Shown in pieces: positions 934-63,360 of a stretch of 64,000 nt of DNA (its first letter is position 1; each line of letters begins with the position of its first letter). The position numbers and the translations under genes are program-made. Location: NCBI GenBank assembly GCA_036149055.1, contig JAYZQJ010000155.1:1-64000 (forward strand). The letters run 5' to 3'. The notes beneath the pieces are model-generated. The model was not told the DNA's origin. It did no database searches and was given only the letters and a program-made list of their open reading frames with translations. The DNA is from Myxococcota bacterium. GTDB taxonomy: Bacteria > Myxococcota_A > Polyangia > Polyangiales > Sandaracinaceae.

Positions 934-1122
934 GCCGTCAATCTAGATGGGCTGACGCCGTTCTTCGAGCAGCGCGCTCAGGCGGCCGTCGGCGGTCACC
1001 CGGAGGCGGTGCTGGCCGCCGGGTTCGCGAGTCACCGTGTCGCTGACAGCGCTCATGAGCGATTCTCCAACGCGGCCATCCTCCGGTCCCGTCCAACGGC
1101 ACCAAGACCCTCGGTCGCCGAG

Positions 1123-1452
1123 CCAGTCGATTCCGGTTATCAACTGGACTCTGCGTTCGAGCGAGAAAATGAGATCGACAGCGATTCTGCTCTGAGCTCA
1201 GAGCGTTCTCGATTCCGGTTATCAACTGGGCTCTGAGCGCAGAGCAACTCTTGATAACCGGAACCGGAAACAGCCTGAGCGCAGAGTCCAGTTGATTCGC
1301 GCTATCAACTAGGCTCTGAGCTCAGAGCCCAGTTGATTCCGGCTATCAACTAGGCTCTGAGCTCAGAGCGGGTTTCGATATCCGATACCGAAAACGCTCT
1401 GAGCTCAGAGTCCAGTTGATTCGCGTTATCAACTGGGCTGAGAGCTCGAGCT
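1123..1452. repeat. Tandem array of a 16-bp palindrome (GCTCTGAGCTCAGAGC) separated by 25-26 bp hairpin-forming spacers; period 41-42 bp
   Basis: Repeat copies start at 1148 (degenerate), 1189, 1230, 1272 (degenerate), 1313, 1354, 1396 and 1437 (degenerate). Spacers at 1123, 1288, 1329 and 1412 match CCAGTYGAT-N7-ATCAACTRG; the one at 1205 matches partly. Confidence 0.92.
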
Positions 1453-1652
1453 CGAGTCTCTGAATTCGACGTTCGAGGGCCAGAGCGTGGGCCCTCGAGG
1501 CCTGCGCAGAGACCTGGAGGGTCTGGGCTCGAGAAAAAAAACTTCGCCCGAGCACGAAACCTCGGCCGGGTCGCTCCGATGGAGGTCGCGTCATCGGGGG
1601 GACCACGTCGGGCGCGGTGCTCGGGGCTTGGATTCCCTCGGGAAGGATCCCC

Positions 1653-2465
1653 ATGGACCACGACGATCTCTCGACGTTCATCCGCCCCAAGCGCTTCGAC
1701 GGCCTGACGGGCGTCTTCCTCGCTCGGGCCCTGCTCGAGGTCACCCCGGAGGACGCCGACGAACGGCTGCTCCGGGAGGCGGCCAGGGTGAGAACGGAGG
1801 CGGAGCACATCCGCCTGACGCTCATCCAGCGCCGCCACCAGACGCCGGCCGAGGTCGGCAAGTGGGGCGGCCGGGTGGACGATGGCTGGATGGCCATCGA
1901 CCAGGGGCTCGAGTCGAGGATTCGCCTCGCGCCCAGCCCCTCCGCCACCCGCGCCACCGAGCTCCGGCAGGAGATCTTCCCGGACGGCACCGGCTTCGTC
2001 CGCCTCCCCGGCAAGCAGCAGTGGAGTCACAGCGACCTCCTGCTGCAGCAGATCGACGAGGCCGGCCTCGCGGCCGAGCTCGACGCCCTCCTCGGTCCCG
2101 AGTACCTCGCCTACCTCCGCCCCGCCCACGAGGCCTACGGCCGCGCGCTCGGCCTCGGCCGCGACGCGAACGACACCCCCGAGTCGGACGCGCTCCGCGA
2201 CAACATCACCACGCTGAGCTACGCCATCGCCGAGTACTGCCGCATCCTCGTCGGCCAGCTCGTCCGCGGTGACGAGGCGAGCGAGGCGCGCTTCCGCCGC
2301 GCCGTCGGCCCCCTCGCCGCCCACCTCGAGGCGACCGCGCGTCGCCGCGCCGCGGGCGAGGAGCCCGAGGAGCCCACCCCCGAGCCCGACCTCGACGAGC
2401 CCCTCCCCGACGTCGACGCCCCGCCCCCGGTGGTCGACGACCCGCCGGTCCCGCTCGAGGCCTGA
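1653..2465 (+). CDS. Uncharacterised alpha-helical protein with acidic Pro-rich tail (FPDG-x-x-F motif family seen in myxobacteria)
   Basis: ATG at 1653 after GGAAGGA; strong GC3 bias; motifs IFPDGTGFVRL and LRPAHEAYGRALG; EEPEEPTPEPDLDEPLP tail. Confidence 0.85.
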   Translation: MDHDDLSTFIRPKRFDGLTGVFLARALLEVTPEDADERLLREAARVRTEAEHIRLTLIQRRHQTPAEVGKWGGRVDDGWMAIDQGLESRIRLAPSPSATRATELRQEIFPDGTGFVRLPGKQQWSHSDLLLQQIDEAGLAAELDALLGPEYLAYLRPAHEAYGRALGLGRDANDTPESDALRDNITTLSYAIAEYCRILVGQLVRGDEASEARFRRAVGPLAAHLEATARRRAAGEEPEEPTPEPDLDEPLPDVDAPPPVVDDPPVPLEA

Positions 2466-2487
2466 GCCTCGGCCGACCCGGCCCTCC

Positions 2488-2520
2488 GAGGCCCCGCCCA
2501 GCGCGCCTGGGCGGGGCCTC
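2488..2520 (+). terminator. Perfect 14-bp GC-rich stem-loop after the 1653-2465 gene (putative terminator or RNA-stabilising hairpin)
   Basis: GAGGCCCCGCCCAG-cgcgc-CTGGGCGGGGCCTC; no clear U-tract. Confidence 0.55.
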
Positions 2521-2629: not shown

Positions 2630-3484
2630 GTGAGAGCCAGCGACGACGACGCGACCACGAGCCCGGTGAGGAGTGACCCGCCCACCGCCCCGGGCTGGAA
2701 GAGCGCGGCCCTGGCGATCGTGTGGTTCCTCGGGTTCTGCGCCGTCGATTGGACGGTGGGCCCGCGGCTGGCCGGGCACGGGCTGGCGCGCTGGGGCAAC
2801 GCGCCGTGGCCGCTCGCGCTGGGCGCGGCGCTCGCCGTGCTGGGCTTGGCGCGGCGCGAGTGGCGCGCCCTCCTGGTGGCGCCAGCAGCCCTGCCCCTCG
2901 CCGCGCTCGTCCAGGAGACCGTCCGCGCCACGCTCCTCGACGCGCTGCCCGCGCGACTCGTCGCGGCGACCCGCGTCCCCTGGATCGAAGCGTGCGCCTT
3001 CGGCGTCGTCATCTCGACGGCGGCCCTCGTGGCGGGCGAGCTCCGCGACAGCATCCGGCCGCGCAACCGCCTGGACCTCCTCGCCCCGTCGGTGGGTGTC
3101 CTCGCCTGCGCGGCGTCCGTCCTCGTGCAGGACCTGTGGCTCTGGTGCGTCCCCACTACGATCGGGGCGCTGGTCCTGCGGCGACGCGAGGGCTGGGCCC
3201 GAGCGACGGGGGTGGTGGCCGTCAGCATGCTGGCCCCGCAGATCGCGGCCATCGCGCGTGCGGCGGCCAGGACCTGGGGCGCCATCAACCTGCCGGAAGC
3301 TCGCCACCAGGTGCTGGCGGAGCAGTTCTGGCCGACTCACGACCTTCTCTGGACCGCCGCCGCCGCCGCCCTCGCCGGGGGCGCCGTCACACAGCTCGCC
3401 CGGCGGAAGGAGCTCGGCCACCTCTTCACCATCCTCGCCGCCGCCGCCGCCTGGCTCGCGGCGTGGATGCTGCGGGCGTCGTGA
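2630..3484 (+). CDS. Hypothetical multi-pass membrane protein
   Basis: GTG at 2630 after AAGGAG; many hydrophobic segments. Confidence 0.7.
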   Translation: MRASDDDATTSPVRSDPPTAPGWKSAALAIVWFLGFCAVDWTVGPRLAGHGLARWGNAPWPLALGAALAVLGLARREWRALLVAPAALPLAALVQETVRATLLDALPARLVAATRVPWIEACAFGVVISTAALVAGELRDSIRPRNRLDLLAPSVGVLACAASVLVQDLWLWCVPTTIGALVLRRREGWARATGVVAVSMLAPQIAAIARAAARTWGAINLPEARHQVLAEQFWPTHDLLWTAAAAALAGGAVTQLARRKELGHLFTILAAAAAWLAAWMLRAS

Positions 3485-3786
3485 TGATGCGCCGCCAACG
3501 GGGACGTCTGGTCCACGAGGCCCTCGGCCTCTTCTCTCCGGAGAACGGCCTCGACCACGCAACAGCCTCCGAGCTGCTGCGGCATCAGCTCGAGGCCCCG
3601 GCCTGGCGGGAGGGACTACGCAAGGACCTCTCCGCGCTGCTTCGCGACGCCGACACCGACTGGATGTCCGTGGTGGACAACGACGAGTTCCGAATGGGCG
3701 AGTTCGATGGACCCGATGACGCCCGTGCGTTCGTCGAGCGTCTCCTGGGGCCGTTCGTCGAGCGTCTCCTGGGGCCGTTCGTCTAG
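3481..3786 (+). CDS. Small acidic hypothetical protein (possibly immunity-like) with duplicated C-terminus
   Basis: GTGA overlap with the upstream stop; protein-like sequence LVHEALGLFSPENGLD...WMSVVDNDEF; ends FVERLLGP-FVERLLGP-FV. Confidence 0.65.
   Translation: MMMRRQRGRLVHEALGLFSPENGLDHATASELLRHQLEAPAWREGLRKDLSALLRDADTDWMSVVDNDEFRMGEFDGPDDARAFVERLLGPFVERLLGPFV
3728..3783. repeat. 24-bp perfect tandem duplication (2.3 copies)
   Basis: CGTTCGTCGAGCGTCTCCTGGGGC at 3728-3751 and 3752-3775, partial copy at 3776-3783. Confidence 0.95.
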
Positions 3787-4053
3787 CGCACCTCGCACTA
3801 AGCCGGATAGCGGCTCGAATTCTCGGGCACCGGGCTTGTGCAGTGACTCGCAGGCGCCCTCGCCTGTAGCAGGAATGCGAGAGGCCCGGCGTCGCGTCGC
3901 TCTAGCAAAGATGCTTCAAGACGGGACCGGCTTGCCAGCGGTATCCTGCCTACGGCAACCTGACAGGGCCAGACCCTTGATCTCCTTCTCGAGAGCTTCA
4001 CGGACAGACAACAGGGTCGGGTACCGCCTGAGCGAGGCGCCGTCGTCCACAAC

Positions 4054-4460: not shown

Positions 4461-4690
4461 GCGGTGTGGGCGCTCCACTGTATTCTGGAGTTCACGAAGG
4501 TCTTCTCGGCCGGACGCGCGGATCCGCTGGCGAGGCGGGAGCCTTACGGAGAGGCGTTCTTCGATGTAATCGTGTTGGATGACGAGCGAGACGGCTCCAG
4601 CCAGTCACCTTGCCCTTTCCACCGGTCCGAGTCGCTCCCCCGGACGAACACGTTCGATTCAAAGAGAATAGCAGCCCAGATGGAGATGTC

Positions 4691-4858
4691 ATGACCGACA
4701 ACAAGCAGCCCAAGAAGAACAAGAACGAGAGACACGGCAACGTCCCCCTTCGCGAGGAGCGACGGGATTCGAACGACAAGGTCATCACGCACGACTACCC
4801 GAAGAATCGTCAAACGCCGATCCCGCCCCCGCCAAGCGAAGCCCCCCCGAAACCGTAG
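4691..4858 (+). CDS. Small Lys/Pro-rich hypothetical protein (55 aa)
   Basis: ATG after GGAG; MTDNKQPKKNKNERHG...PIPPPPSEAPPKP; directly upstream of the 4879 gene. Confidence 0.5.
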   Translation: MTDNKQPKKNKNERHGNVPLREERRDSNDKVITHDYPKNRQTPIPPPPSEAPPKP

Positions 4859-4878
4859 GCCTCAACCTGGCAACCCCC

Positions 4879-5877
4879 ATGACCGACAGTCTACAGCTAG
4901 TACTGAGCCCAGTCCTTGGTGCCCTCGGAGGAATCGCGACACACCTTCTAATCGGGTACGCGAAGACACGCCAAATCGCCGCTGACTCAGCTCGAGACTT
5001 GGCCGTGGACGTCGCGGGAACGCTCAACGCAGCCGAGCACCTCTTCAGCGAACTGTGCAAGCCACGCGGACCACTGCCGCAGGAGGGGCGTTCACTACTG
5101 CGAGATGAACTCGTGAAGCACGCGAGCGACTGGAGCCTTGCCAACCCCTCCCTTGAACTCAGCCAGGTACTGCCGAACCTAAACAACGAAGAGCTGCACC
5201 GGCTATGCATGAACTGGCACGATCGACTGGCTCACTTCAGGCGCAACTCCGCCTTGCATAGGGAAGCCTACTACTGGCTTCTCGACCTTTCGAAAGAAGC
5301 CGACCCGAGCGACCCATCGGCGGTCGAGAGAATCCACGGACTCGACCACTACCGAGCTCGATGTACCGCTCATTGCCGCGACATTCTCCAGATCGGATAC
5401 GAACTGCTTCAGCGCCTTTCGGAGTCGAACCTGTCGACTTGGCCACCCCTCAGCAGGAGAAGTACACCACCGCTCTCAACTACGCTTCGAAGGCACTATA
5501 AACTGTCCCCCGAGCAACTCTCACGGCGAGCCGCCTACTACCGCATCCATGACTTATGCACACCTTATTGTGACAAGCGGTCCTACTCACGTGTCGCGCT
5601 TTCCACTCAGACCGACCACTCGTTCCACGCACTGTGCGTCCGGATAGAACTCGAACCGGGCCGGACCTTCCAAGCCGTCTGGCGCCCGGATGACGAGGTT
5701 GCCCTGCCCCACGGCAAACTCCTCTCCGCCCGCGCACGCCTGCCGTCCGGCCACTGGGAGACAGTGCGAATGGTTCGGCTGGATCGGGTTCTTGCGGCCT
5801 CGCGGAGCGCGCTGGAGGAACCCTTCCAGTTCACGGTCCAGGCTGAGCAAGGACAGCCAAGGCTCGTAGAAGCCTGA
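4879..5877 (+). CDS. Hypothetical protein with N-terminal TM anchor and helical domain
   Basis: 332-aa ORF in the lower-GC region; LQLVLSPVLGALGGIATHLLIG at the N-terminus. Confidence 0.7.
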   Translation: MTDSLQLVLSPVLGALGGIATHLLIGYAKTRQIAADSARDLAVDVAGTLNAAEHLFSELCKPRGPLPQEGRSLLRDELVKHASDWSLANPSLELSQVLPNLNNEELHRLCMNWHDRLAHFRRNSALHREAYYWLLDLSKEADPSDPSAVERIHGLDHYRARCTAHCRDILQIGYELLQRLSESNLSTWPPLSRRSTPPLSTTLRRHYKLSPEQLSRRAAYYRIHDLCTPYCDKRSYSRVALSTQTDHSFHALCVRIELEPGRTFQAVWRPDDEVALPHGKLLSARARLPSGHWETVRMVRLDRVLAASRSALEEPFQFTVQAEQGQPRLVEA

Positions 5878-5939
5878 GCAGGTCCCCAAAGCTCCGGCCA
5901 GCGAACAGAGGCCAGGCGTACCCAGTGGCCGGCCCAGAC

Positions 5940-6935
5940 CTACCTATAGGTCGTCTCAGATGAACAGATCTTTACACTGCCTGGGGGCCGCCCAAGACTA
6001 AGCAAAAACATCTCAAGGCTATGTTCGGTTGTGGGAGCAGCACGAGGACCCATCCAGATCTCGGCAATGGAAGTAGGCGCCTCACCGTCAGCACCACGAA
6101 GAGGCCAGTCGAGGTACGGAGCCATTCCATACTTTGTGTCTCTAAACCCAAGCAGCTGGGTGTCACGAAGGCGCTTCGCACACTTCTGCGCGAACTCCGC
6201 GGTCGGTATCCACACCAGGCGCCATTCCCGCTCCTCCTGGAAGCCTGGATGCTTGAAATAGCACGCCAAGAGACTGGCCAGACGCAGAACCGACGCGACA
6301 CAAACCAGTTCCGCCTGAGTCTGCTCCAGACCTTGCTCAACCGCCTGTTTGCTCGCTTCGATCATTCGCGGGATGACACTGAGTGCTTCACTCTGGCGGC
6401 CTTCATCATACAAGACCGGAGCCAGCAGTGGACCCATCAGATCCGTCGAGAGCTCTGGGCATATCTCAGTCGCCTCCGGCACCTTCGCGAGCCGAAAACC
6501 CACCGAGTATCCGTCGCCATCGTTGGCGTAGGCCCGCCACTGACTGAGAGAATCCGGATCTTCTGAGAAGCAGGCCACGAAGACTTCTTTGCCTAGCACG
6601 GCTGGGTGCGTCGCGAGGTGAGACAGAAGGTCCTTGGTGACCTTGGCAGTCATAGGCTCGAGGTCATTGTTGCCGTCGGCAACGCGCAGCATCCGATCCC
6701 AGATGTATTTCCCTTCGCCATAGTCGTTGAGGAAGGCACTATGCGTAGCCCAGATCCGCTCGTGCTCGAGTATCGATCTGAGCGCCCGACCGTCGGTGTA
6801 TTGATACAGAGTGGGGATGGCCCCAACCTCAGCAGGTGCAACCTGCTCGATGACCTGATTGATCAGGGCGTCGAGTTCGCGATCGAGGGACTGATACAAA
6901 TCCGATTCGGTCATGAGGCAATGTACCGCGATCAA
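5940..6935 (-). CDS. DUF2971 domain-containing protein
   Basis: Motifs LYQYT..., IWATHSAFLND, FVACFSEDPDSLSQWRAYA, GYSVGF, FKHPGFQEEREWRL, EIWMGP; start may be the ATG at 6914. Confidence 0.88.
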   Translation of the reverse strand: MIAVHCLMTESDLYQSLDRELDALINQVIEQVAPAEVGAIPTLYQYTDGRALRSILEHERIWATHSAFLNDYGEGKYIWDRMLRVADGNNDLEPMTAKVTKDLLSHLATHPAVLGKEVFVACFSEDPDSLSQWRAYANDGDGYSVGFRLAKVPEATEICPELSTDLMGPLLAPVLYDEGRQSEALSVIPRMIEASKQAVEQGLEQTQAELVCVASVLRLASLLACYFKHPGFQEEREWRLVWIPTAEFAQKCAKRLRDTQLLGFRDTKYGMAPYLDWPLRGADGEAPTSIAEIWMGPRAAPTTEHSLEMFLLSLGRPPGSVKICSSETTYR

Positions 6936-7044
6936 AGGCTCGATAGGAGGTGCGTGAGGGAGACTCGGGCCAGCTCGCCGCCGTCACGCGCCGATCTGGG
7001 ACGGGCCGACGCCAAGGTAGGCGTGTTCCTGAGTGCCATCATGT

Positions 7045-10005
7045 TCACTCGGAGGACGCTGTCTCAGGCCCCCCCTGTTGCGGTGACAGCAGCGTCAACA
7101 CATTGGCCGAGAACAGCATCAGGAAGTGGGGCTGCCCGTCGTTCCGAAGGTCGTGCTCCACGAGGAATGAAAGGTTCGCGCTCACACCAACCTGTGACGC
7201 CCCCGGCTCTTGGACCAGCGGCAGCGAGATGCCCATCCCGTAGACGATGCTAGGAGCCTGAGCGATGTCACCGAGTGCACTCTGTAGCAGGAGTCCTGCC
7301 TGAGCCTGGAGGCCGATGAACGTGGGGTTCTGTCGAACCCGGTAGTCCCACGGTTCCGCTACCAGCAACACGCCCGTTCGAAGGGTCGAGAACGAGACGC
7401 TGGTGTCAGAGAGGCTGGATTCCAGGTCTATCGGACTTGCCGGAAGGCGCATGGCGCCCACTCCGATCGGCACAGTGACGAAGAACCGGAAGCCGTCTCC
7501 TCGGTGGTAGACGACATTGCCGAAGATCCCGCGTGGGCGAACGCGCGCGACATAGCGGTAGACGCCACGCTCGTAGGCGGCTCCGTTCGCCTGTGTGTCG
7601 ACAGCGTCCTGGCGATACGGCACGTCCGGGCGTCGAACGGCAATGGTCGCCGTGACGATGAAGTCGTCCTGCTGCTGACCAGAGAGAGGAAACCTCAACG
7701 GCCCTGTCAGGATTCGTCGCTCGGGCAGGGGCTCGAATACAACATCCTCCCCCACCGGCTCGGCCTGATCCCTCGCCCGTATCCGGACACGTACTAGCTG
7801 CCGGCCGTATAGCCGGAGGCGGTGAGTGCTCGACATCGAATGGCCTCGCAAGGGCGGCTCGTATACGAGGCGGCAGTCATCGACGTTGCCAGGGGCCACG
7901 ATATCGCCGTCGCGTGCGACGTGGCCGAGTGGAGGCGCCTGCTCCTGAACCGGTGATGGATCTGCCCTCTCTCCGCCCGTGTCGTACGCGTCGAAGGAGG
8001 ACATTTCGTCGAGACGACTCTCGCACACGAGAGCGAGCGATTCTCCGATGGGGAGCGGAACGCTTTCGACCCGAGCTGCCGATCCGACAGTCACGCGCAG
8101 GTCGGCGAGGGGAGTCTGGGAGCACGCGAGCATGCCGAGTGACGCTCGGGCAAGAGCAGCCATTCGAACGCGGGCTTCCAGCTCAGCGATTCGCCGCATG
8201 GTGACACTAACAAGCCTACTCGATGCGCCACTACAGCTCTGTTCGCGACTCCGTGTAGCGCGACAAGCGCGAAAGTCCGCGACGGCCTCACGCGTAGCGA
8301 CTTCTAGGTCTTCGACGTCGACGGCGCGGGAGGTGCGCGTCAACCAGCTGTCGATCCAGTCGAGCCGTCCCCTCAGCTCGAGCAAGACGGCGCGGTTTCG
8401 GTCCGTAGCCGGTGCGGGAGCTCCGGCATCCGAGGCCTCTTCCATACCCTCGATCGTCTCTCGCAACTCAGCTCTTCTCGCAGTGAGTTCTTGGCGCCAA
8501 CAGTCGAGATCGCCGCCACACTGAGTCCACGGCGTAGAGACCGCGCGCACGAAGAGGGTAACAGGCCCCGCCCGGGCGGTAGTCACGCGGTAGGTGGCGC
8601 TGCCGTTGGGCATCACGGACCAGAGGTGGGTCGGAAGTGGAATCCGGTCTGGTGTAACCACCTGCACGTCGGGATCCGCCGAGGACACGCACCACGTGTG
8701 CGCGTCTTGGACCCCGAGCCCGTCCAGGCTCGGCAGGTCGATGACCGCGTGGTTCACCACGCCGACCAGCGGGTTCGCCGCAGACGGCTCGCTCTCCGAA
8801 TCATCGCACCAGGTACCCGTACTGGGATCGCAGAGTCGTCGTGGCAGGAGCTGAATCGGTAGCGGATCGACGGCTACCCTGGTTTCGCCCATGGCCCCCC
8901 GATAGGAGAGCACCTGAAGTGGCTCGACTCCAAGCGTCGTCGTGTCGACGACGGCAAACCCAGGCCCCTCCTGGCCCGACGGCTGCGAGACCGGACCACC
9001 CGCAAGAGCCTCTAGCTCCGGATACCCGTAGTGGGCTTCGAGTGACCGGGCTCGAATATCCGACAGCGCGGTCGAACTCCCGAGTGACCCCAGATTTCGG
9101 CCGTCTACTTCCAGATGCCACTGAGCGTTGTCTGCGAGGTCCGCAGGGACGTTTCGGATGTCGACCGCAATCATCCCGCTCTCGTAGGCGCCCGGTTGCT
9201 GGTGTGCGATGACACCGCGCACCCGGGCAACACGTCCATTCGCAGCGGTCGCCACCAGATAGAGCTCGGCGCCGGCCGGGTAGTCGTCGAGCAGTCCGCA
9301 GTCGGCGCGCAGTGTCACACTCTGCCAGGCTGCGCCCCGGAAGACACCACCGAGGGGTGTCTCCATGACGATGTCACATCGACGTAGCTCCACGCGAAGA
9401 CGCACGCTGCTGTTCCCGTCGAACGAGATCGTGACTTCGCGGGCGTCGGGCGGGGGCTCGATGACAAGGCTCGAGAGCAGCCTGTCCCTCGTCTCCCAGT
9501 GCACCCTGCAGTTGGCTGCACCGGCCGCACAACTCGGAGCTCCCAGCACCCGGTGCACCAGCGCAGGCATGAGAACTGTGGCTTCCGCCTCGGCATACTC
9601 ACCCACTACCGAGAGTCTGTTGGACAGCAGCTCGACGGTCGGCGTACCCGGCTGTGGGCCGCTTGCGGTGTAAGTATTCCTTGCCCCGCACTCGACGGCA
9701 CGCCCTAGAACTGCTGCCGTCGGACCACAGCTCTCGCGGGGACCACACGTGAGTTGCGCACGCCGGACGGGTTCGGCTCGCCGCACGCTGACCGTTGAAC
9801 CTCCTCTGGTCACGTTGGTCGGCGAGCCGAGCTCGAGCCGAGCATACCCAACGTGACACGCAGAGTCGGCGGGCAGCCCCTCGATCTCGTAGGTGTAACT
9901 GAGATCCGCATTTACGAGGATACGAGCGTCTAGAGGCTGGGCTCGGACCGACAGCGGCCAGGCGCACGACACTACCGCTGCCACCCCGAGAAGATAGCGA
10001 TTCAT
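7045..10005 (-). CDS. Large secreted hypothetical protein (signal peptide, beta-rich domains, coiled coil, possible C-terminal membrane beta-strands)
   Basis: MNRYLLGVAAVVSCAWPLSVRA-Q signal peptide; 986 aa; ATGA overlap with the upstream lipoprotein gene. Confidence 0.75.
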   Translation of the reverse strand: MNRYLLGVAAVVSCAWPLSVRAQPLDARILVNADLSYTYEIEGLPADSACHVGYARLELGSPTNVTRGGSTVSVRRAEPVRRAQLTCGPRESCGPTAAVLGRAVECGARNTYTASGPQPGTPTVELLSNRLSVVGEYAEAEATVLMPALVHRVLGAPSCAAGAANCRVHWETRDRLLSSLVIEPPPDAREVTISFDGNSSVRLRVELRRCDIVMETPLGGVFRGAAWQSVTLRADCGLLDDYPAGAELYLVATAANGRVARVRGVIAHQQPGAYESGMIAVDIRNVPADLADNAQWHLEVDGRNLGSLGSSTALSDIRARSLEAHYGYPELEALAGGPVSQPSGQEGPGFAVVDTTTLGVEPLQVLSYRGAMGETRVAVDPLPIQLLPRRLCDPSTGTWCDDSESEPSAANPLVGVVNHAVIDLPSLDGLGVQDAHTWCVSSADPDVQVVTPDRIPLPTHLWSVMPNGSATYRVTTARAGPVTLFVRAVSTPWTQCGGDLDCWRQELTARRAELRETIEGMEEASDAGAPAPATDRNRAVLLELRGRLDWIDSWLTRTSRAVDVEDLEVATREAVADFRACRATRSREQSCSGASSRLVSVTMRRIAELEARVRMAALARASLGMLACSQTPLADLRVTVGSAARVESVPLPIGESLALVCESRLDEMSSFDAYDTGGERADPSPVQEQAPPLGHVARDGDIVAPGNVDDCRLVYEPPLRGHSMSSTHRLRLYGRQLVRVRIRARDQAEPVGEDVVFEPLPERRILTGPLRFPLSGQQQDDFIVTATIAVRRPDVPYRQDAVDTQANGAAYERGVYRYVARVRPRGIFGNVVYHRGDGFRFFVTVPIGVGAMRLPASPIDLESSLSDTSVSFSTLRTGVLLVAEPWDYRVRQNPTFIGLQAQAGLLLQSALGDIAQAPSIVYGMGISLPLVQEPGASQVGVSANLSFLVEHDLRNDGQPHFLMLFSANVLTLLSPQQGGPETASSE

Positions 10006-21514: not shown

Positions 21515-23878
21515 TCAGAGGAGGCCGGGGCAGCGCTCGTCACCCGCGTCGCTGTTGTCCGTGCTCACGCATTCGATGACGCCGATCGAGCTCCCGTCGA
21601 CCCGCGCCTCGTAGCTGAGATCGGTGTCCGCCTCGATGTCGGCGACGGTCACCGTGACGCGCTCGCTCGCGCCGGGCAGGAGCGCGGTCGTCGTCGTCGC
21701 GGTGCCCACCTCCGCCTCGGGCCCGGGGGCCGTCTGGAAGAAGCTGACGGTCACCCCGGCGGGCACCCCCCGTGAGCCCACGTTGCGGACGCGCGCGGAG
21801 AGCCGCACCGCGCGCTCCGCGCACACGCCGACCACCGTCAGCTCGACCTGCAGGTTGGGAGCGTTGAACACGCCGGCGCCCTGCACGTTCTGGCGGTAGT
21901 TGTTGAGATCGCCGCGGGTCCAGTTGTCGGTCTCGACCGCCGGCACCTCGCCGCGATCGCCGACGTTGGTCACGTGGTAGGTGTGCTGGTTCCAGATGGG
22001 CCGGGTTCGAACCCAGCGGTCGCCGGGATCGCCGTAGACGTACACGCCCGAGGTCGCGACGGGGCAGTCGTCACGCGAGATGGCCTGGTCGCGGTTCGCG
22101 GGGACGACGATCTCCGAGTTGCCGTCGCGGTCGACGTCCACCACCAGCGGGTACTCGATCGCGGTGCGCGACGAGTTGTTCACGGGGGCGGCGAGCACGT
22201 CGGCGCCCGTCGCGCCGTCGTAGACGTGCAGGAAACACTCGTCGTTGTAGATGACCTCCGACGCGCCGTCCCCCTGGAAGTCGAAGACGCTCGAGCCGGT
22301 GATGCTCGACGAGATGTCCTGGGTCGCCGTCCGCCAGAGGATGAAGTCCGTGCCCGAGCCCATCGTCACGCAGCTCCCGCCGCTGCGCGGGGGCGTCGTC
22401 AGGCAGTCGGGATCGTAGACCGCGTAGAACGCCTGGCCCGCGGTGGAGATCTCCGGCAGGCCGTCTCCGTCGAAGTCCGCCACCGTCGGCGCGCCGCCGA
22501 TGCCGCCGCCGGGGATCGCGAAGGTGCCGTCCGCCCAGCTGCCGCCCGGCCCGACGCGCATCGCCCCCGTGGCTCCGTCGCGGACGACCACCGAGCCCGC
22601 GTCCACCACGATCACCTCGGGCGCTCCGTCGCCGTCGAGATCGGCGATGGCGGGGAACCCGTGGCCGCCCGCGTTCCAGAGCGTCGAGCCGTCGAGGTCG
22701 TAGGCGACTCCGCCCGAGGTGACCTCGGGCTCGGGATCTCCGTCGAGGTTGGCCACCGCGGTGAGCGAGTAGGCACCGTTGGCAGCGCAGAGCCCGTGAT
22801 CGAAGAAGTCGAGCGAGGCGTCCCCGATGTTCGCGCCGTTCATCGCGTGGCAGCCCACCACCACGTCCGGCGTCCCGTCGGCGTTCAGATCCGCGATGGA
22901 GGGGCTCGCTCGGCCGGACGCCGACCCGCCCGTCGTGCGGCGCGCGATCTCGGTCGTCCCGTCGCCGTCCACGATGCGGTAGCCGCCCGTGTGCAGGCGA
23001 TAGAACACCTCGAGCGCGACGTCGCTCGGGTCGAAGTTCGCGAGCCCCACCGACGTGATCCAGTCGGGCCGATCCGCGCCGGTGATCGACCAGAGCAGCG
23101 TCCCGCTCGCGCCATCGAGCGCCACCAGGATGGTGTCGGAGGTGGTTCCGCCCGTGTAGACCGGGACCACCACGTCGGGCACGCCGTCGCCCGAGACGTC
23201 GCCGACCATCGGGGCCGCGATCACGTTCTCGTACAGCCGCCCGCCGATCGTCACGCCGGCCCAATGCCACTCCACCTCGAGCGAGACCTCCTCGAACTCC
23301 GGGCGAACCTCGCAGTCGATCCCCTCGGGGATCGGCAGGCATCGCCCGACCGTCGCCTCGCAGTAGTCGCCCTCCGTGAGGCAATCGTAGTCGTCCGTGC
23401 ACGCGTCCCCCGGGGTCGCGCACGCGTCGTCCAGGCAGACGTCCCCCGAGGCGCAGCAGATGTCGAGGTCGGCCCCGCAGAGCGGCGCGTCCCCGCAGTC
23501 GGCGGCGCACACGATGCCGTCCAGACACACCTGGCCCGCCGCGCAACACTCCATCGAGTTGTCACCGCAGCGGACCGTCTCGCAGATGTCCAGGCACTGG
23601 AAGCCGTCGACGCACTCCTGCCCTTCGGCGCAGCACGGCGTGGGACCACCGCACTCGAGCGCGGCCGGGCAGGTGACGGTCATCCCTCCGTCGACCTCCG
23701 CGTCGCTCGCGCCGGCGTCGGCGACGGGGAAACACACGCCATCCCGGCAGACCTCGCCCGCGGCGCAATCGCCCGTGGTCGTGCAGCGGTCGGGCGGCTC
23801 TCCTTCGCAGTCGCAACCGGCGAGAGTGGCCAGGAAGGAGAGCGCGACGAGGACGCGAGGCAAACGGCAGCGAGGCAT
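21515..23878 (-). CDS. FG-GAP repeat lipoprotein with Cys-rich N-terminal repeats and C-terminal CARDB-like domain
   Basis: Lipobox TLAG-C; GDVSGDGVPD, ADLDGDGAPE, DFQGDG, WNQHTYHVTNV, VRNVGSRGVPAG. Confidence 0.85.
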   Translation of the reverse strand: MPRCRLPRVLVALSFLATLAGCDCEGEPPDRCTTTGDCAAGEVCRDGVCFPVADAGASDAEVDGGMTVTCPAALECGGPTPCCAEGQECVDGFQCLDICETVRCGDNSMECCAAGQVCLDGIVCAADCGDAPLCGADLDICCASGDVCLDDACATPGDACTDDYDCLTEGDYCEATVGRCLPIPEGIDCEVRPEFEEVSLEVEWHWAGVTIGGRLYENVIAAPMVGDVSGDGVPDVVVPVYTGGTTSDTILVALDGASGTLLWSITGADRPDWITSVGLANFDPSDVALEVFYRLHTGGYRIVDGDGTTEIARRTTGGSASGRASPSIADLNADGTPDVVVGCHAMNGANIGDASLDFFDHGLCAANGAYSLTAVANLDGDPEPEVTSGGVAYDLDGSTLWNAGGHGFPAIADLDGDGAPEVIVVDAGSVVVRDGATGAMRVGPGGSWADGTFAIPGGGIGGAPTVADFDGDGLPEISTAGQAFYAVYDPDCLTTPPRSGGSCVTMGSGTDFILWRTATQDISSSITGSSVFDFQGDGASEVIYNDECFLHVYDGATGADVLAAPVNNSSRTAIEYPLVVDVDRDGNSEIVVPANRDQAISRDDCPVATSGVYVYGDPGDRWVRTRPIWNQHTYHVTNVGDRGEVPAVETDNWTRGDLNNYRQNVQGAGVFNAPNLQVELTVVGVCAERAVRLSARVRNVGSRGVPAGVTVSFFQTAPGPEAEVGTATTTTALLPGASERVTVTVADIEADTDLSYEARVDGSSIGVIECVSTDNSDAGDERCPGLL

Positions 23879-53612: not shown

Positions 53613-55757
53613 TCAGCCGACGCCGGACTCGCCGAGGATGGCGTGCTCGAGGCGGCAGGCGCGGAAGGTCGCGCGGAAGGTCTGCGCGTCGTAGAGGTTC
53701 GCGCCGCGCAGATCGCACTCGGCGAGCTCCGCGCCCTCGAAGTAGCCCCGCATCAGGTTCGCCTTCACGAAGGTCGCCCCGTGGGCCTTCGCCCTCGGCC
53801 AGCGGCAGCTCTTCGCCTCCACCTGGTTCAGGTTCGCGCGGTCGAAGACCGAGTCCTCGAAGACCGAGTCCTCGAAGGTGGCGCCGGAGAGATCGGCGTC
53901 GCTGAAGTCGCACTTCCGGAGGCTCGAGCCGGCGGCGGTGACGCGGGCCAGCGAGGCGCCGGAGAGCACGGCGCCGTCGACCCGCGCGCCGTCCATCACC
54001 GCGTCAGACGCGAGGAGGCGCGCGCCGGCGACGCCGTAGAGGCGCACGTCCGGCATCTGCGCGCCGGTGAGGTCGGCGTCCTCGAGCCGGGTGTCGGTGA
54101 AGTCGGCCGCGGCGAGGCGGGCGCCGCGCAGGCTCACGCGGCTCCAGTCCGCGCCGCTGACGCTCACGCCGTCGAGAGAGGCGCCGTCGAGCTGCGCGTC
54201 GGTGGCCCGCGTTCGATCGAGCGAGGCCTGGTCGAGCTTCGCGTCCGTCAACTTGGCGTTCGACAGCGAGGCACCCGCGAGGCTCGCGCCGCGCAGGTCC
54301 GCCCCCGACGCGTCGCAGCCGTCGAGCTTGGCGTCGGTCAGCACCGCGCCCGAGAGCGTGGCGCCAGCGAGCGACACGCCGCTGAGATCGGCCCCGATCA
54401 GGAGCGCGCCCGCGAGATCGCGCCCCGAGAGGTCCCGGCCCGTCAGGTCGCAGTGCGAGAGGTCCTCGTCGCCGAGGGAGCCGCCTCGGTCGAGGAGCGC
54501 GGCGAGCGCGGCGGGCGCCAGCGCCGGCGCGGGCGGAGGCGGCGCCTTCGGCTCGAGCGGCGGGGACGCGACGGTCGCGGCCCACGGGGGGAGGCCGAGG
54601 GCCCGCGCCTGATCGGTGGTGAGACCGCGGGGCGGGACGTAGCCCTCGGGCGGCTGCGGCGCGGGCTCCTCTTCCGGCTCGTCCTCCTCGGGCGTGCGCT
54701 CGTGCGCGGCCCGGTACGCCTCGGTGAAGCGGCGGTGGATCTCGGCCTCGCCGCACGGCTGCGCGCTCGGCTCGGCGAGCACGAAGAAGCTCGCGAGGTC
54801 GCTCCCGTACTGATCCTCGACCTCGATGGCGCCGCGCCAGACGAGGATCACCTGCAGCTGGTCGGCGTCGAACCAGACGGTGTCGAGCTGCATCGGCAGC
54901 TCCTTCAGCGCGTGCGACGACGCGAGCGGCTGCGCGAAGGCGCGCACGCGCAGCGACGGGAGCCGCCCCTCGAGGATCTCGTCGTCCGGGCGCACGCCGG
55001 CGAGCCGGTACCACTCGTCGCCCCGCGGGTGCGCGAACTGCAGCTCGGGGGGCGCGGCCTGGAAGAAGTCGTAGCGGAAGCTGTCCGGGAAGTAGGGCGC
55101 GCGGCTCGCCGCCCAGCCGCCGCCGTAGTCCCCCACGAAGCGCTGGCGCGACGGCCAGGTCTCGGGGATCGGGGTCGTCAGCGCGGGCGGAGGGCGGTCC
55201 TGGGGCGAGCGGAGCAGCCGGTCGAGGCGCTCGAAGCTCGGCAGGCGGCCGCCCTCCCCGGCGCGCCCGACCCCGAGCGGGTTGTTCGGATCGTCCGGCC
55301 CCCCGAAGGCGCGCTCGGGCCGCAGCGGGATCTTCTCGAAGGGCGCCGGCTCGCTCGGCGCGCCGCGCTGCCAGGTGCGCTCGCCGATCGCCGCGAAGGC
55401 GTGATGGAGGTCCCGGCCGAGGCGCATCTCCACCCGCTGCACGGGAGGGCCGGCCTTGCGCGAGCGGTAGGCGTGCCCGGTCAGGAAGACGTCGCAGCGC
55501 GGCTTGAAGAACGCCATGTCGCCCGGATAGACGAGCGCGTCCTCGGCGTCCTCGAAGGGCGTGGGGCCGAGCGGCAGGGCCTGCTCCTCGGCCGGGGTGG
55601 CCGGGCCTCCGGGCACCAGGTCGAAGGTGCCCTTCACCGTCAGGATCTGCGCGTCGCGAGGCGGGCGCAGCTGCCACGCCTGGGTGAAGGCGGGCAGAGG
55701 GATCGAGGTCAGGACCGGAACGGAGTCCGGCTCGCGCGGGGGGGTCGGCAGGGCCAT
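53613..55757 (-). CDS. T6SS accessory DUF2169 protein with C-terminal pentapeptide repeats
   Basis: VKGTFDL, FKPRCDV, ERAFGG...NPLGVG, FFQAAP, LDTVWFD...LVWRG; pentapeptide repeats. Confidence 0.92.
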   Translation of the reverse strand: MALPTPPREPDSVPVLTSIPLPAFTQAWQLRPPRDAQILTVKGTFDLVPGGPATPAEEQALPLGPTPFEDAEDALVYPGDMAFFKPRCDVFLTGHAYRSRKAGPPVQRVEMRLGRDLHHAFAAIGERTWQRGAPSEPAPFEKIPLRPERAFGGPDDPNNPLGVGRAGEGGRLPSFERLDRLLRSPQDRPPPALTTPIPETWPSRQRFVGDYGGGWAASRAPYFPDSFRYDFFQAAPPELQFAHPRGDEWYRLAGVRPDDEILEGRLPSLRVRAFAQPLASSHALKELPMQLDTVWFDADQLQVILVWRGAIEVEDQYGSDLASFFVLAEPSAQPCGEAEIHRRFTEAYRAAHERTPEEDEPEEEPAPQPPEGYVPPRGLTTDQARALGLPPWAATVASPPLEPKAPPPPAPALAPAALAALLDRGGSLGDEDLSHCDLTGRDLSGRDLAGALLIGADLSGVSLAGATLSGAVLTDAKLDGCDASGADLRGASLAGASLSNAKLTDAKLDQASLDRTRATDAQLDGASLDGVSVSGADWSRVSLRGARLAAADFTDTRLEDADLTGAQMPDVRLYGVAGARLLASDAVMDGARVDGAVLSGASLARVTAAGSSLRKCDFSDADLSGATFEDSVFEDSVFDRANLNQVEAKSCRWPRAKAHGATFVKANLMRGYFEGAELAECDLRGANLYDAQTFRATFRACRLEHAILGESGVG

Positions 55758-55764
55758 GGCGCGG

Positions 55765-56175
55765 TCAGACGTGCGAGAAGACCTGGGTCTGCGAGGGCGC
55801 CACGTGGACCCCGCCCGCCGGCAGGTTGCCGCCGTTGTGCTTGGTGGGCGTGAGGTGATGGACCACCTTCTTGCCCCCCGCGTAGACCTTGCTGCTGCCC
55901 TTCAGGAAGCCGGTCTCGTTGGCCAGCTTGGGCGCCTTGACCATGCCCTTGAGCGTGCCGGCCTCGTCGCCGTTGCTCGAGCCCGGCTCCGAATTCTCCA
56001 CCACGACGTCCTTCTTGCAGACCTTCACCTTCTCGCAGGTCCCTTTGCTGTTCCGCACCTGGGACATGTTGGGGAACGGCGTCGGGATCGGGGGCGCGGG
56101 GGGCGCCGGCACCTTGCAGACGTCGGGGAAGCCGGCGCAGCTGCCGCCGCCTTTGGTCGCTACGGGGAAGTACAT
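55765..56175 (-). CDS. DUF4150 PAAR-like spike tip protein (no toxin extension)
   Basis: FPDVCKVPAPP..PIPTPFPN, SNGDEAG, GSSKV, SQTQV. Confidence 0.9.
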   Translation of the reverse strand: MYFPVATKGGGSCAGFPDVCKVPAPPAPPIPTPFPNMSQVRNSKGTCEKVKVCKKDVVVENSEPGSSNGDEAGTLKGMVKAPKLANETGFLKGSSKVYAGGKKVVHHLTPTKHNGGNLPAGGVHVAPSQTQVFSHV

Positions 56176-56179
56176 GGGC

Positions 56180-56842
56180 TCACCCCAGAAGGACACGCTC
56201 GCCGTCGACGGCGGTGTCCTTCTCCGAGCGGATGGAGGTCCGGTGGGCGAAGAGGCTCATGCCTCCCCGCGCGATGCTGCGCAGCGTCCCCGCGCGCACC
56301 TGCAGGAGCGACTCCACGTCGCGGAAGACGTCCTTGGCGCGCTCGCGGATGCGGTTGGCGCGCAGGCTCCACCGATCGGCGGAGATGGCGACCTGGTCGG
56401 CCTCGGTCACGAGCTGGCGCACCCGCTGAGTGAGCGCGTCGGCCTCGATCTCGATCTCCGGCGCCGCGAGCCGGAGCTTCTCCGGCGCGGACAGCGTCAC
56501 GCCGTCCTTCGCGTCGTAGCGCGCGATCCAGCCGCCGTCGTCGCCGCGGAGCACGATCTGGCCGTCCTCCACCGTGGCCCGCGCGCCGTCGACCTCGAGG
56601 ACCCCGGGCGCGAGGCGCGCGACGAGCACGCCGGTCACGTAGACGCCGCCCTCGGACGCCGCGCAGAGCACGCGGTCGCCCTCGCTCGGAAGGTAGCCGT
56701 GCACGGCGTTGCGCGCGTCCACGAGGGCTCCGGCGAGGTCGGCGCGGTGGAGGCGAACGCGCCCCTCGGCGACCTCCGCGATCACCCCCTCGAAGAGGGC
56801 GGCGGCGCGCGCGCTGGCTTCACGGCTGGCTGTCGAGCTCAC
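56180..56842 (-). CDS. DUF3540 family T6SS accessory protein
   Basis: YLPSEGDRVL...VYVTGVL; C-terminal VDGERVLLG. Confidence 0.85.
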   Translation of the reverse strand: MSSTASREASARAAALFEGVIAEVAEGRVRLHRADLAGALVDARNAVHGYLPSEGDRVLCAASEGGVYVTGVLVARLAPGVLEVDGARATVEDGQIVLRGDDGGWIARYDAKDGVTLSAPEKLRLAAPEIEIEADALTQRVRQLVTEADQVAISADRWSLRANRIRERAKDVFRDVESLLQVRAGTLRSIARGGMSLFAHRTSIRSEKDTAVDGERVLLG

Positions 56843-56877
56843 TGTGTCTCCTCCCGTCGGTCGTCATCCCACCGCGC

Positions 56878-59211
56878 TCAGGTCGTCTGCGTGGTGAAGT
56901 CCTCGGCCCGCGCCCGCTCCTCGTCGGTCCAGGCGGCGTGGTCGGTGCGGGCGCCCGTCAGGTGCGCCCCCTCGAGCTGGGTCCGGTGCAGGGTCGCGCA
57001 CCGCAGGTCGGCGTCCATCAGCACCGCCCTCCGCGCGTCCGCGCGGCTCAGGTCGGCGAAGCTCAGGTCCGCGCGGATGAGGTTCGCGCCGACGAGGCGC
57101 GCGTCCTCGAGGAGCGCGTGCGAGATGCGGGCGCGCTCCAGCTTGGACTCCGAGAGGTTCGCGCCCATGAGGTGCGCGTCGGTCAGGTCGACGTCGCTCG
57201 CGTCGACCCGCGACAGATCCGCCTCGGGCGCGTCCAGGCCCTCGGCGCGAGCCCCCGCCAGCTTCGCGCCCCGGAGGTCGGCCCCGCTCAGCCTCACCTG
57301 ACGGAGCGACGCGCCTCGCAGGTCGGCGCCCGCCATCCGGCCGCGCGCGAAGCTCGAGTCGTCGAGCACGCACTCCGCCAGCGAGACGCCGTCGGCCACG
57401 CAGTCCTCCACGAGGCACGCGACGAGCTCCACGCCGTCGAGGCGACACGCCGTCAGGTCGGCCCCGGTCAGGTCGGCCTCGTGCAGCCGGGCGCCGCGGA
57501 GGTCCGCGCCGTCGACCCGTTCCGTCCTCAGGTGCGCGCCCCGCAGGTCGACACCGGCGAGGCGCGCCTGCCGGAGGTCGACGCCGTCGAGGTTGGCGCC
57601 CGTCCAGCGCGCCCGCCCGAGCCCGGCGCCGCTCAGATCCGCCTCGCTCAGGTCGGCGCCGGTGAAGTCGCAGTCGGCGAGGTCGAGCCCGCGCAGGCGC
57701 GCCCCCGCGAGGTCGGCGCCGACCAGGCTCAGGCCCTCGAAGTCCACCCGCGAGAAGTCCACCTCGCCGAGCGGGACGCCGCGCAGGGAGCAGCCCGCGA
57801 CCAGGAAGCGGTCGAGCGGCAGCCCGTCGAGCGTGGCCTCGTCCAGGACGGCGCCGGCGAAGTCGGCGCCGTCGATCCGCGCGTCCGTCAGGTCCGCGCC
57901 GGTGAGATCGGCGCCGGCGAGCCGGGCCTCCTCGAGCCCGGCCCGGACGAGGCGCGCGCCGCGCAGATCGCAGCCCTCGAGGTCGGCGCCGCGGAGCTTC
58001 GCCCCCGCGAGATCGACGCCGGCCAGGGGGACCGCGCGGAGCTCGGCCCCGCTCAGATCCGCGCCGGCGAGGAGCACCCCGTCCATGGCGACCCGGGCGA
58101 GCGGCCAGGCGCCGAGCTTCGACCCGGCGAGGCTCGTCGCGTGCATCGACGCCGGGGGGCTCGCGCCCTGGAGGTCGCTCCCGCTCAGCTCGACCTCGCG
58201 CAGCGTGACGCCGTCGAGGCGCGCGTCGGTGAAGCGCGAGCCCGGCGAGCGCACGTCGACGAAGGTCGCGTCCGTCAGGTCGGCGCCGCGCGCGTCGAGC
58301 TCTGCGCCCCGGACGCGCTCCCAGCGCGAGCCGCGCGCGTCGGCGGACTCGACGCTCACCCCGGAGGCGACGCACTCGAAGACCGAGAGGCCCCGGAGGC
58401 GAGCCCGGGTCAGGCGCGCGCCGGAGAGCTCGACGTCGCGGAGCGCGGCGCCCCGCAGGTCGACGTCGGGCAGGGAAGCGTCGGTGAGGCGGGTGTGCTC
58501 GACGGTCGCCTCGGCGAGCGAGCTCGGCGCGCCTTCGGCCCGGAGCCGGGCCAGGTCGGTCGACACCAGGTAGGCGTGCTCGAGCGAGGCGCCCTCGAGG
58601 ACCACGTCGGGCGCGACCGCGTCCCGGAGATCGATCCGCGGCAGGCGCGCCCCGCGGAAGCTGGCGCCCTCGAGGCTCGCGCCGATCGCCGCGAGGCGGG
58701 GCAGCTCACCGCACTCGATCCGCAGCCCGTCGGCGAGCGCGCGCACCAGCGAGGCGTCGGTCCCCGTGCAGTCGCGGAGCGTGGCCTCCTCGAGGCGCGC
58801 GTCCTCCAGACCGACGCGGCCCAGGCTGCACGCCTCGAGCGTCGCCCCGCCGAGGTCGGCGCCGGCGAGCCACGCCTCGTCGAGCTGGCAGCGATGGAAG
58901 CGCGTCCGCGCGAGGTTGGCGCCCCCCGCCCGCATCGAGGTGAGATCGCAGTCGAGGACCTCGGCCTCCAGGAGCGCGCCGGACGTGAGCCGCGCCTCCC
59001 GCAGGATCACCCGCTCGAGCCGGGCGCGGACGAGCTTCACCGAGTCGAGCTCCGCGCCGCTCAGGTCGCATCCCACCCAGGTCGTGTCGAGCAGCACGCC
59101 GCCACGCAGCCCGGCGCCGGCGAGATCCACGCCCTCGATCCGGCAGCCCGAGAGGGTGCGCTTCGCGGAGCGCTCGAGCAGCTCCTCGCGTGTGGTGATG
59201 ACGTCGCTCAC
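56878..59211 (-). CDS. Long pentapeptide repeat protein
   Basis: About 777 aa, almost entirely A(D/R)Lxx repeats; GTGA overlap with the upstream gene. Confidence 0.9.
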   Translation of the reverse strand: MSDVITTREELLERSAKRTLSGCRIEGVDLAGAGLRGGVLLDTTWVGCDLSGAELDSVKLVRARLERVILREARLTSGALLEAEVLDCDLTSMRAGGANLARTRFHRCQLDEAWLAGADLGGATLEACSLGRVGLEDARLEEATLRDCTGTDASLVRALADGLRIECGELPRLAAIGASLEGASFRGARLPRIDLRDAVAPDVVLEGASLEHAYLVSTDLARLRAEGAPSSLAEATVEHTRLTDASLPDVDLRGAALRDVELSGARLTRARLRGLSVFECVASGVSVESADARGSRWERVRGAELDARGADLTDATFVDVRSPGSRFTDARLDGVTLREVELSGSDLQGASPPASMHATSLAGSKLGAWPLARVAMDGVLLAGADLSGAELRAVPLAGVDLAGAKLRGADLEGCDLRGARLVRAGLEEARLAGADLTGADLTDARIDGADFAGAVLDEATLDGLPLDRFLVAGCSLRGVPLGEVDFSRVDFEGLSLVGADLAGARLRGLDLADCDFTGADLSEADLSGAGLGRARWTGANLDGVDLRQARLAGVDLRGAHLRTERVDGADLRGARLHEADLTGADLTACRLDGVELVACLVEDCVADGVSLAECVLDDSSFARGRMAGADLRGASLRQVRLSGADLRGAKLAGARAEGLDAPEADLSRVDASDVDLTDAHLMGANLSESKLERARISHALLEDARLVGANLIRADLSFADLSRADARRAVLMDADLRCATLHRTQLEGAHLTGARTDHAAWTDEERARAEDFTTQTT

Positions 59212-63313: not shown

Positions 63314-63360
63314 GGCCGGTAGTATCCGCAATCGGTGAACCCTCTACAAGGCTACGACCC

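Follow-up and report, generated by a model that had tools for sequence, protein, structure and literature searches.

Phased dyad arrays beside DUF6261-like helical protein genes: a candidate array–protein system in a myxococcotal genome

Near the start of the window, the 64,000-nucleotide stretch of Myxococcota DNA analysed here, a non-coding array of eight tandem units precedes a gene for an all-helical protein (Table 1). An earlier note, made from the letters alone, had described eight copies of a 16-bp palindrome at a 41/42-bp period, and the description holds: the copies lie at positions 1148 to 1437 with start-to-start steps of 41, 41, 42, 41, 41, 42 and 41, and the palindrome pattern has 10 strand-matches in the window, every one within the array, far above the mean of 1.06 and maximum of 4 in 100 shuffled windows. 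Three copies are perfect palindromes, two carry one mismatch and one carries five, while both end copies carry 7–8 (ungapped). The array is relatively AT-rich, as the note had it (GC 0.535 at 1201–1400, against 0.70–0.79 in the flanks), and its proposed non-coding character agrees with the 3–8 stops found in each of the six frames. The distance to the gene, put at about 200 bp, measures 201 bp to the ATG at 1653; a perfect 14-bp hairpin does follow the gene, at 2488–2520; and a Pfam scan of 58 window ORFs detected no cas, transposase or integrase family, in agreement with their reported lack nearby.

The intervening segments require a different description. Taken in the earlier note for 25–26-bp spacers, they have that length and are not spacers: each unit joins a 25/26-bp B dyad to the 16-bp A palindrome, and five of the eight B segments are mutually identical at 16–23 of 25 positions and form a second dyad. 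B4 (1246–1271) is an inverted B3, scoring 8 forward and 17 reversed; B7 is similar to B4, and B2 is unrelated to the remaining B dyads. The supposed spacers are thus a second family of related dyads, which places two-fold axes every ~20.5 bp along the array. A three-unit block of 124 bp is present as a duplicate within it. Whereas the earlier note had named, as the observation that would tell against its reading, a generic palindrome scattered through the genome beside homologues lacking arrays, the exact 16-mer has just four copies across the 9.9 Mb of the genome, confined to two loci (seven copies at no more than one mismatch), and is therefore not a generic REP/BIME; the homologues, as described below, do carry arrays. 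The genome also holds 40–43-bp repeats without relation to the DUF6261-like family.

Table 1. Features of the array–gene locus (positions in the window)
Feature	Position	Strand	Remarks
Tentative left flank of cassette	1057..1122	.	A second copy, in two public runs, matches the window from 1057 rightwards
Phased array	1123..1452	.	8 units of 41/42 bp; non-coding
B dyads (1123, 1164, 1205, 1246, 1288, 1329, 1370, 1412)	1123..1436	.	Core TTGAT-N7-ATCAA
Six inner A palindromes (1189, 1230, 1272, 1313, 1354, 1396)	1189..1411	.	Consensus GCTCTGAGCTCAGAGC
Degenerate end copies of A palindrome	1148 and 1437		
A8 tract, UP-element-like (inferred)	1534..1541	+	Directly upstream of the promoter-like motif
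Predicted ECF-sigma-type promoter	1556..1581	+	GAAAC (1556–1560), 16 bp, CGATG (1577–1581)
Predicted 5' leader	1582..1652	+	Conserved with closest paralogs
Gene for 270-aa all-helical protein	1653..2465	+	Remote DUF6261 (PF19775) relative
Perfect 14-bp hairpin	2488..2520	+	Likely terminator; paralog homology stops here

The protein ends in an acidic, proline-rich tail beyond about residue 236 and has no Pfam match and no recognised DNA-binding motif; at the Pfam cut-off, PF19775 (DUF6261) is matched neither by the window protein nor by anything in the whole genome. Comparison of profiles, however, ties the two together: five of 135 close relatives match PF19775 weakly (E<0.01), the family profile matches 29 of 30 PF19775-positive loci at up to 60 bits, and hhalign aligns the family with PF19775 over 152 columns (probability 96%, E 5e-9). 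In the top Atlas clusters DUF6261 is assigned to 23–78% of members, with 23% in the Myxococcota cluster that holds the window protein. Matching at the level of profiles and not at the Pfam cut-off, the protein is a remote DUF6261 relative and not a Pfam member. Its closest named relatives are hypothetical proteins of Sandaracinaceae; its own genome yields 11 protein matches, read as nine genes, two of them split across contig ends, while a profile search returns 1535 representatives (50% identity) at E<=0.001 and paralogs reach 20 per genome.

Structure prediction (pLDDT 94) gives an all-helical model, and the ranges aligned by VIA-align suggest two stacked helical bundles. The wider family keeps structural positions only (D76, A101, F109-P110-x-G112 and P220), which makes an enzymatic role improbable. 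Y195, H159 and R225, weighed as a catalytic set like that of tyrosine recombinases, are not retained in the wider family, and this candidate was therefore dropped. The protein core has a net charge of about −1, with basic residues mostly in helix 36–65. At sites that are near-invariant among its close relatives the window protein deviates (R225 to L, D222 to A, R69 to G), and this copy may therefore be atypical. A Foldseek search against the PDB gave no clear match (best E 0.11, the McpS sensor domain, TM 0.35), VIA-align returned generic helical bundles only (best Z 7.9), which does not make the fold new, a sequence search of solved structures produced weak cytochrome b562 matches only, and a viral fold search with the protein model found none. 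Homodimer prediction scored 0.29 against a mark of 0.42, evidence neither way. Across 135 family members there was no PADLOC match, and no ToxN/CptN/TenpN-type ribonuclease by Pfam, NCBIfam or PADLOC. Searches for the protein in plasmids and for the array in phages found no match, DNA-pattern searches for close relatives found none in metagenome or viral contigs, and the same kind of search with a distant member found nothing in genome contigs.

The earlier note had proposed scanning the flanks of homologues for periodic palindromes, and the scan supports its suggestion that array and gene form one unit. Of 78 matched loci we kept 65 with a whole gene start and 600 bp of upstream sequence, dropping 13 rows as duplicates, contig-end or partial genes, or weak matches; one of the 65 rows, L026, comes from an unpublished genome (G023). 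A strong upstream array, defined by a score of at least 15 at lags 41, 42 or 82–84, occurs at 36 of the 65 loci, compared with 14 of 2000 control upstream regions of the window genome and, among low-GC controls, 3 of 101; because the loci are related by descent, such counts exaggerate their independence. A wider test (lags 40–44 and 80–88, threshold 10) placed arrays upstream only at 45 loci, downstream only at six, on both sides at one and on neither at 13. Four of the six downstream-only loci have clear 41–43-bp arrays by eye, and nine of the 13 'neither' loci show a degenerate period on one side by a more sensitive test with a liberal null, leaving four of 65 without an array even by that test, two of which have little downstream sequence.

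What these arrays share is spacing and not sequence. The best period among 38 arrays is 41 (17 arrays), 42 (16), 40 (4) or 43 bp (1), and dyad spacings peak at 20–21, 41–42, 61–62 and 82–83. Testing dyads locus by locus gave a weak result, with 10 of 38 significant, so the loci were pooled, and in the pooled test at least two dyads are present in 27 of 37 arrays against 3.9 expected. From locus to locus the units mostly show no sequence relationship, even where paralogs share a genome, and some arrays are rich in GC, reaching 0.73; the 40–43-bp period is nevertheless conserved, as is the placing of two-fold axes at multiples of ~20.5 bp. Between close paralogs, the B dyad is common and the A palindrome differs on both arms yet stays symmetric, and half-units of the array are swapped independently; a degenerate array is kept at an orthologous locus in two species. 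Geometry is thus what is conserved, four helical turns per unit with a dyad every two, indifferent to the side of the gene and to the orientation of the unit, and sequence is free, even among paralogs in one cell. That paralog units are unrelated within one genome argues against a single host factor reading all of them; the same spacing in different sequence beside most relatives suggests that each protein docks on its own row.

Between array and gene lies GAAAC-N16-CGATG, which we predict to be an ECF-type promoter, as a motif and not a mapped start. Its family form, G(A/C)AAC-N16-CGA(TG/CA) within 220 bp before the start codon, is found at 43 of 65 loci with a spacer of 16, against 20 of 4701 controls, and at none of the 65 with spacers of 13–15 or 17–19; at many homologous loci an A or T tract stands just before it. 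Genome-wide the motif alone is only slightly commoner at spacer 16 (87 occurrences, against 16–72 at other spacers), while eight of the 12 sites that combine motif and tract precede family genes. No sigma-70 promoter was found at 900–2700 and no terminator between array and gene, the sole terminator-like site being a minus-strand palindrome; the leader may form a hairpin, for which support is weak (consensus energy −1.42). At motif-bearing loci every mapped array ends upstream of the motif, which, standing between array and gene, would set the array outside the predicted transcript.

PF19775 genes of other families lack the motif, and among 30 such loci (13 genomes, eight from one family) the array lies downstream at 17, upstream at four and on both sides at three, against 38 of 1500 downstream controls taken from the window genome; several of these downstream arrays follow a terminator-like hairpin. 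Within the 65-locus set, the four clear downstream loci require three changes on the protein tree, a number indistinguishable from that for shuffled labels. A second helical family, represented by two divergent genes on contig C132 and belonging to an Atlas cluster of 4751 members, shows a similar association, with 21/42-bp arrays in 14 of 21 loci (lag 21) and the ECF-type motif in 12 of 21.

Comparison of copies within the genome and with a congener indicates how the locus is built. Between close paralogs, homology begins at the motif and stops where the terminator ends; one pair of cassettes shares 86% identity over the stretch from −303 up to the gene start, and what are presumed to be their 3' halves agree until shortly past the terminator. 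One cassette sits inside a 4.7-kb insertion missing from the congener, and another occupies the same position in both species. Array, predicted promoter, gene and terminator are best read, from these alignments, as a mobile cassette.

Most gene-linked upstream regions also have gene-less copies elsewhere, 73–86% identical, with at least ten in the genome. When ten were aligned, none retained the gene, and eight ceased to align between −65 and −117, either at the motif or within it. Left and right ends vary between copies, and several begin directly behind a host stop codon, one of them as a clean ~245-bp insertion at a site empty in the congener. In the congener, five of the sites occupied here by an array or a cassette stand empty, four of them gene-less (gaps of 272 versus 28, 1029 versus 31, 1272 versus 74 and 1267 versus 88 bp); three other gene-less sites were uninformative. 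Neither terminal inverted repeats nor target duplications were seen at five junctions, and the congener is about 80% identical, which blurs the insertion junctions. The window array has a gene-less counterpart on contig C187 that agrees with it in all eight units, one by one, at 86% identity. Across 310 bp there are 44 differences, which are not concentrated in either element (A, 13 of 112; B, 31 of 198; p=0.4) and so give no sign of constraint on gene-less copies. Two DNA runs from other studies show substitutions with no indel, the unit number unchanged.

Public RNA libraries cover parts of the locus. Contigs identical to the window span 1616–2194 and 1618–2116 in two runs of one study, in which few further long pieces occur over 20 kb, suggesting that the gene is expressed. 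In these two metatranscriptome runs the gene is covered and no contig of at least 97% identity is listed over the array, in assembled RNA contigs that can reveal neither absence nor transcript starts or levels. An RNA-library contig of a related copy (11 differences) spans 1057–1258, including the first three units.

The reading we favour, about evenly poised between right and wrong, is that the array serves as a double-stranded DNA docking site for the protein of the adjoining gene, in a cassette present in multiple copies per genome. The elongated helical protein would assemble on the array as a row of two-fold symmetric contacts, with a subunit on each half-unit (two helical turns), and every paralog would recognise its particular array; of the possible consequences, feedback regulation of the protein's own ECF-type promoter would be the likeliest, and gene-less arrays might be either relics of cassette insertion or extra docking sites. 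Of the two readings offered in the earlier note, the phased DNA-binding platform is the one thereby preferred, whereas an RNA processed into ~41-nt units is disfavoured by an array lying outside the predicted transcript, by an inverted unit and by a predicted fold of long multi-unit duplexes. The inverted unit, together with the fixed unit number, favours a DNA docking array over both a processed RNA and a CRISPR-like array. Against docking stand the lack of a DNA-binding motif, the near-neutral core and the unusual substitutions of the window copy, as well as the presence of the related copy's first three units on an RNA-library contig. An extension of this reading, which we consider unlikely, would make these pairs a widespread class of self-matched protein and DNA array, in which a non-HTH helical rod polymerises on its own phased array and as many as 20 paralogs per genome differ orthogonally in sequence specificity; the array, perhaps a DNA antitoxin or genome-integrity sensor, would then keep hold of the protein until an attack on the chromosome, and might also be what signals the spread of the cassette.

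Several other explanations draw on the same observations. The gene-less copies invite the view that the array is a cis signal for, or by-product of, cassette movement, with gene-less arrays as non-autonomous mobile elements of the kind of MITEPgRS, whose tandem repeats are 41 nt long (PMC4596501, PMC2575886). The promoter-proximal ends of eight of the ten gene-less copies, none with a gene, and the clean insertion at a site empty in the congener fit this view, which we nevertheless consider unlikely: copy ends are ragged, neither terminal inverted repeats nor target duplications showed at the five, albeit blurred, junctions, no transposase family turned up among the window ORFs scanned, Y195, H159 and R225 are not kept in the wider family, and gain here is indistinguishable from loss in the congener without an outgroup. 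That the array is instead transcribed into a structured RNA bound by the protein, possibly as ~41-nt units in a type III toxin–antitoxin-like manner, seems to us quite unlikely. Its strand does fold far better than shuffles (z = −13.75), the related copy's units do appear on an RNA-library contig, and palindrome changes on both arms suit hairpins and dimer sites equally well; yet the array precedes the predicted promoter or, elsewhere, follows the gene, with no intervening terminator, its units are degenerate and can be inverted, the fold consists of multi-unit duplexes rather than unit hairpins, the protein family lacks conserved catalytic residues, and no Rfam family matches the array at gathering score (all 20 matches listed fall below it, none of them CRISPR).

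The array might also sequester a harmful protein, DNA taking the part of an antitoxin, so that loss or degradation of the array, for example through phage attack, would free the protein. Gene-less arrays are common (10 aligned) and arrayless genes rare (four of 65), an asymmetry to be expected if the neutralising part must be lost last, and each paralog has a private array in variable islands; with no PADLOC match among 135 members, and with eight units able to seat only few subunits, we rate this as very unlikely. We judge it just as improbable that the array is an enhancer for host factors, for instance a CarD–CarG-like pair with an ECF sigma factor, and is not read by the neighbouring protein. 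An AT-rich array located 100–250 bp before an ECF-type motif that itself has an A/T tract would suit such a role, the genome has 59 sigma-70 region 2 matches, and CarD of Myxococcus xanthus binds AT-rich tracts near ECF promoters (PMC6061681), whereas the units of paralogs are unrelated within a genome, some arrays are GC-rich and distant relatives have a downstream array without the motif. A neutral minisatellite expanded by slippage beside the gene, for which the 124-bp block duplication and degenerate ends are typical and to which the unrelated 40–43-bp repeats elsewhere in the genome lend some colour, is extremely improbable: period and dyad spacing recur with unrelated sequences, in both protein families and whether the array precedes or follows the gene, and unit number is constant in the C187 copy and in two strains from other studies, so that family-wide linkage, as judged from sequence comparison, appears largely to refute it.

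We regard the pairing of array and gene as a candidate new kind of system, with its mechanism inferred. If the pairing is real, a large, functionally uncharacterised family would acquire a substrate that can be tested directly; DNA would be recognised without a known DNA-binding fold, geometry being fixed and sequence free; and the paralogs would provide natural orthogonal protein–site pairs. The pairing may, moreover, account for dispersed 41–42-bp repeats of bacterial genomes. New here are an ECF-type motif that would place the array beyond the transcript, arrays that have shifted to the downstream flank, gene-less copies whose homology stops at the promoter, and a second protein family with 21-bp units. 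We found no description of such an array–gene pair in the literature searched, most subscription papers lying outside the search, and papers on DUF6261 amounted to unrelated Streptococcus studies.

Among known repeats, CRISPR and TIGR arrays likewise consist of palindromic repeats set at regular intervals within non-coding DNA of raised AT content. In contrast to CRISPR, the intervening segments here are related dyads rather than unique guides, neither copies nor strains show turnover of units, and the window ORFs scanned include no cas gene. REP/RAYT palindromes carry a GTAG/GGAG tetranucleotide at their foot, which occurs on neither strand of the array, and the array's 16-mer is not one repeat in many genome-wide copies, unlike REP/BIME. 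Integron attC sites have the core sites RYYYAAC ... GTTRRRY together with an integrase; the array contains no such core site, and the window ORFs scanned include no integrase. The nearest protein family, DUF6261 (PF19775), resembles the window subfamily in length, helical core, low-complexity tail, solitary genes and 41–44-bp arrays, and differs in that the window subfamily has its own promoter motif.

That motif recalls the AAc/cGT motifs of ECF promoters and the DdvS ECF promoter of Myxococcus xanthus, given as GTAAn16CGT (PMC6061681), sharing a bipartite AAC ... CG at fixed spacing and nearby AT-rich tracts, while the spacing and −10 letters differ in G(A/C)AAC-N16-CGA(TG/CA). Type III toxin–antitoxin systems such as ToxIN place short tandem repeats upstream of a single protein gene (PMC3401426), and these repeats encode RNA pseudoknots, the protein usually being an endoribonuclease (PMC12283969). 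Their order of promoter, repeats, terminator and toxin gene is not that found here, where the promoter is a predicted one whose transcript would exclude the array, units may be inverted and the protein family conserves no catalytic residues. The nearest described DNA to the array is Repeat C of MITEPgRS (MITE464) from Porphyromonas gingivalis, a dispersed, intergenic, tandem 41-nt repeat of variable number (PMC4596501, PMC2575886). In MITEPgRS the terminal inverted repeats are of ISPg1 type and there is a single repeat sequence, whereas here the ends are ragged, units are private to each locus and arrays go with a single gene family.

In its working, by analogy, the array–protein pair would be most like sopC with SopB. 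The sopC centromere of the F plasmid (type Ia ParABS), twelve repeats of 43 bp bound by SopB (PMC3177203), shares tandem units of about four helical turns, a 16-bp inverted repeat and an adjoining gene for the presumed reader. The window protein, unlike the ParABS systems, has no ParB-family match, and no ParA-type gene is present among the window ORFs scanned. Compared with sopC, the array here is chromosomal, accompanies up to 20 paralogs per genome with private units, contains two alternating dyads per unit, and can stand on either side of its gene.

Gene-less arrays, phased palindrome arrays that stand without a gene of the window 1653-2465 protein family, also occur in the source genome (G000) in a unit type of their own, on three contigs (see table). 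No matching gene for this type was found in the G000 assembly; similar units lie upstream of family genes in other genomes. A further gene-less array, on contig C195 of G000 (locus L126, ~1090-1360), is inserted immediately 5' of a gene that, judged from its sequence, we take to resemble tRNA-His guanylyltransferase, and the array could change the expression of this gene directly behind it. Upstream of three paralogs (loci L006, L007 and L044), the degenerate arrays repeatedly contain a clean dyad, TGACA-N3-TGTCA, which three gene-less copies also have; its form is typical of a dimer binding site.

Arrays also accompany other proteins. A 254-aa remote relative (L133:2389-3150, on G000:C279; E 1e-7 against the family profile) has a 41/42-bp array of its own, and arrays of similar appearance lie close to contig ends on C118 and C222. 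A second helical family, also uncharacterised, is represented at locus L134 (G000:C132:10413-12266) by two divergently oriented genes that have a single 21-bp tandem array in common, and the promoter-like motif of the window family is present at each of the two genes; this layout recurs in relatives.

The window protein itself and a 96%-identical relative lack R225 and D222, and also R69 and P70, residues that are near-invariant among close relatives, and this copy may be degenerate or respecialised. When the predicted leaders of eight paralogs (window 1582-1655) were folded singly, each formed a long irregular hairpin; the consensus structure is weak. In another genome (G001:C124:16564-17140), several partial copies of the 3' half of the family gene lie in tandem behind an intact one.

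Gene-less arrays of the separate unit type, and a gene cluster in the window
Feature	Location	Description
Gene-less 41-bp array	G000:C47 ~6440-6610	separate unit type, two alternating dyads
Gene-less 41-bp array	G000:C70 ~23550-23730	unit type as on C47, two alternating dyads
Gene-less 41-bp array	G000:C196 ~220-400	unit type as on C47, two alternating dyads
Gene cluster	window 53616-63331	VgrG-like (Phage_GPD), PAAR-like, DUF2169, DUF3540, pentapeptide-repeat

Elsewhere in the window, positions 1-127 are a repeat that many contigs of the source genome and of a congener also carry at their ends, and it probably marks one end of a mobile element; contig C28, which carries a family paralog less than 3 kb away, likewise begins with it. 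A small acidic ORF of 100 aa (3484-3788), whose end contains an exact 24-bp duplication, lies at the border of a lower-GC island (about 4600-7800) made of orphan genes. Towards the other end of the window, the tabulated cluster resembles loci of contractile injection or type VI systems.
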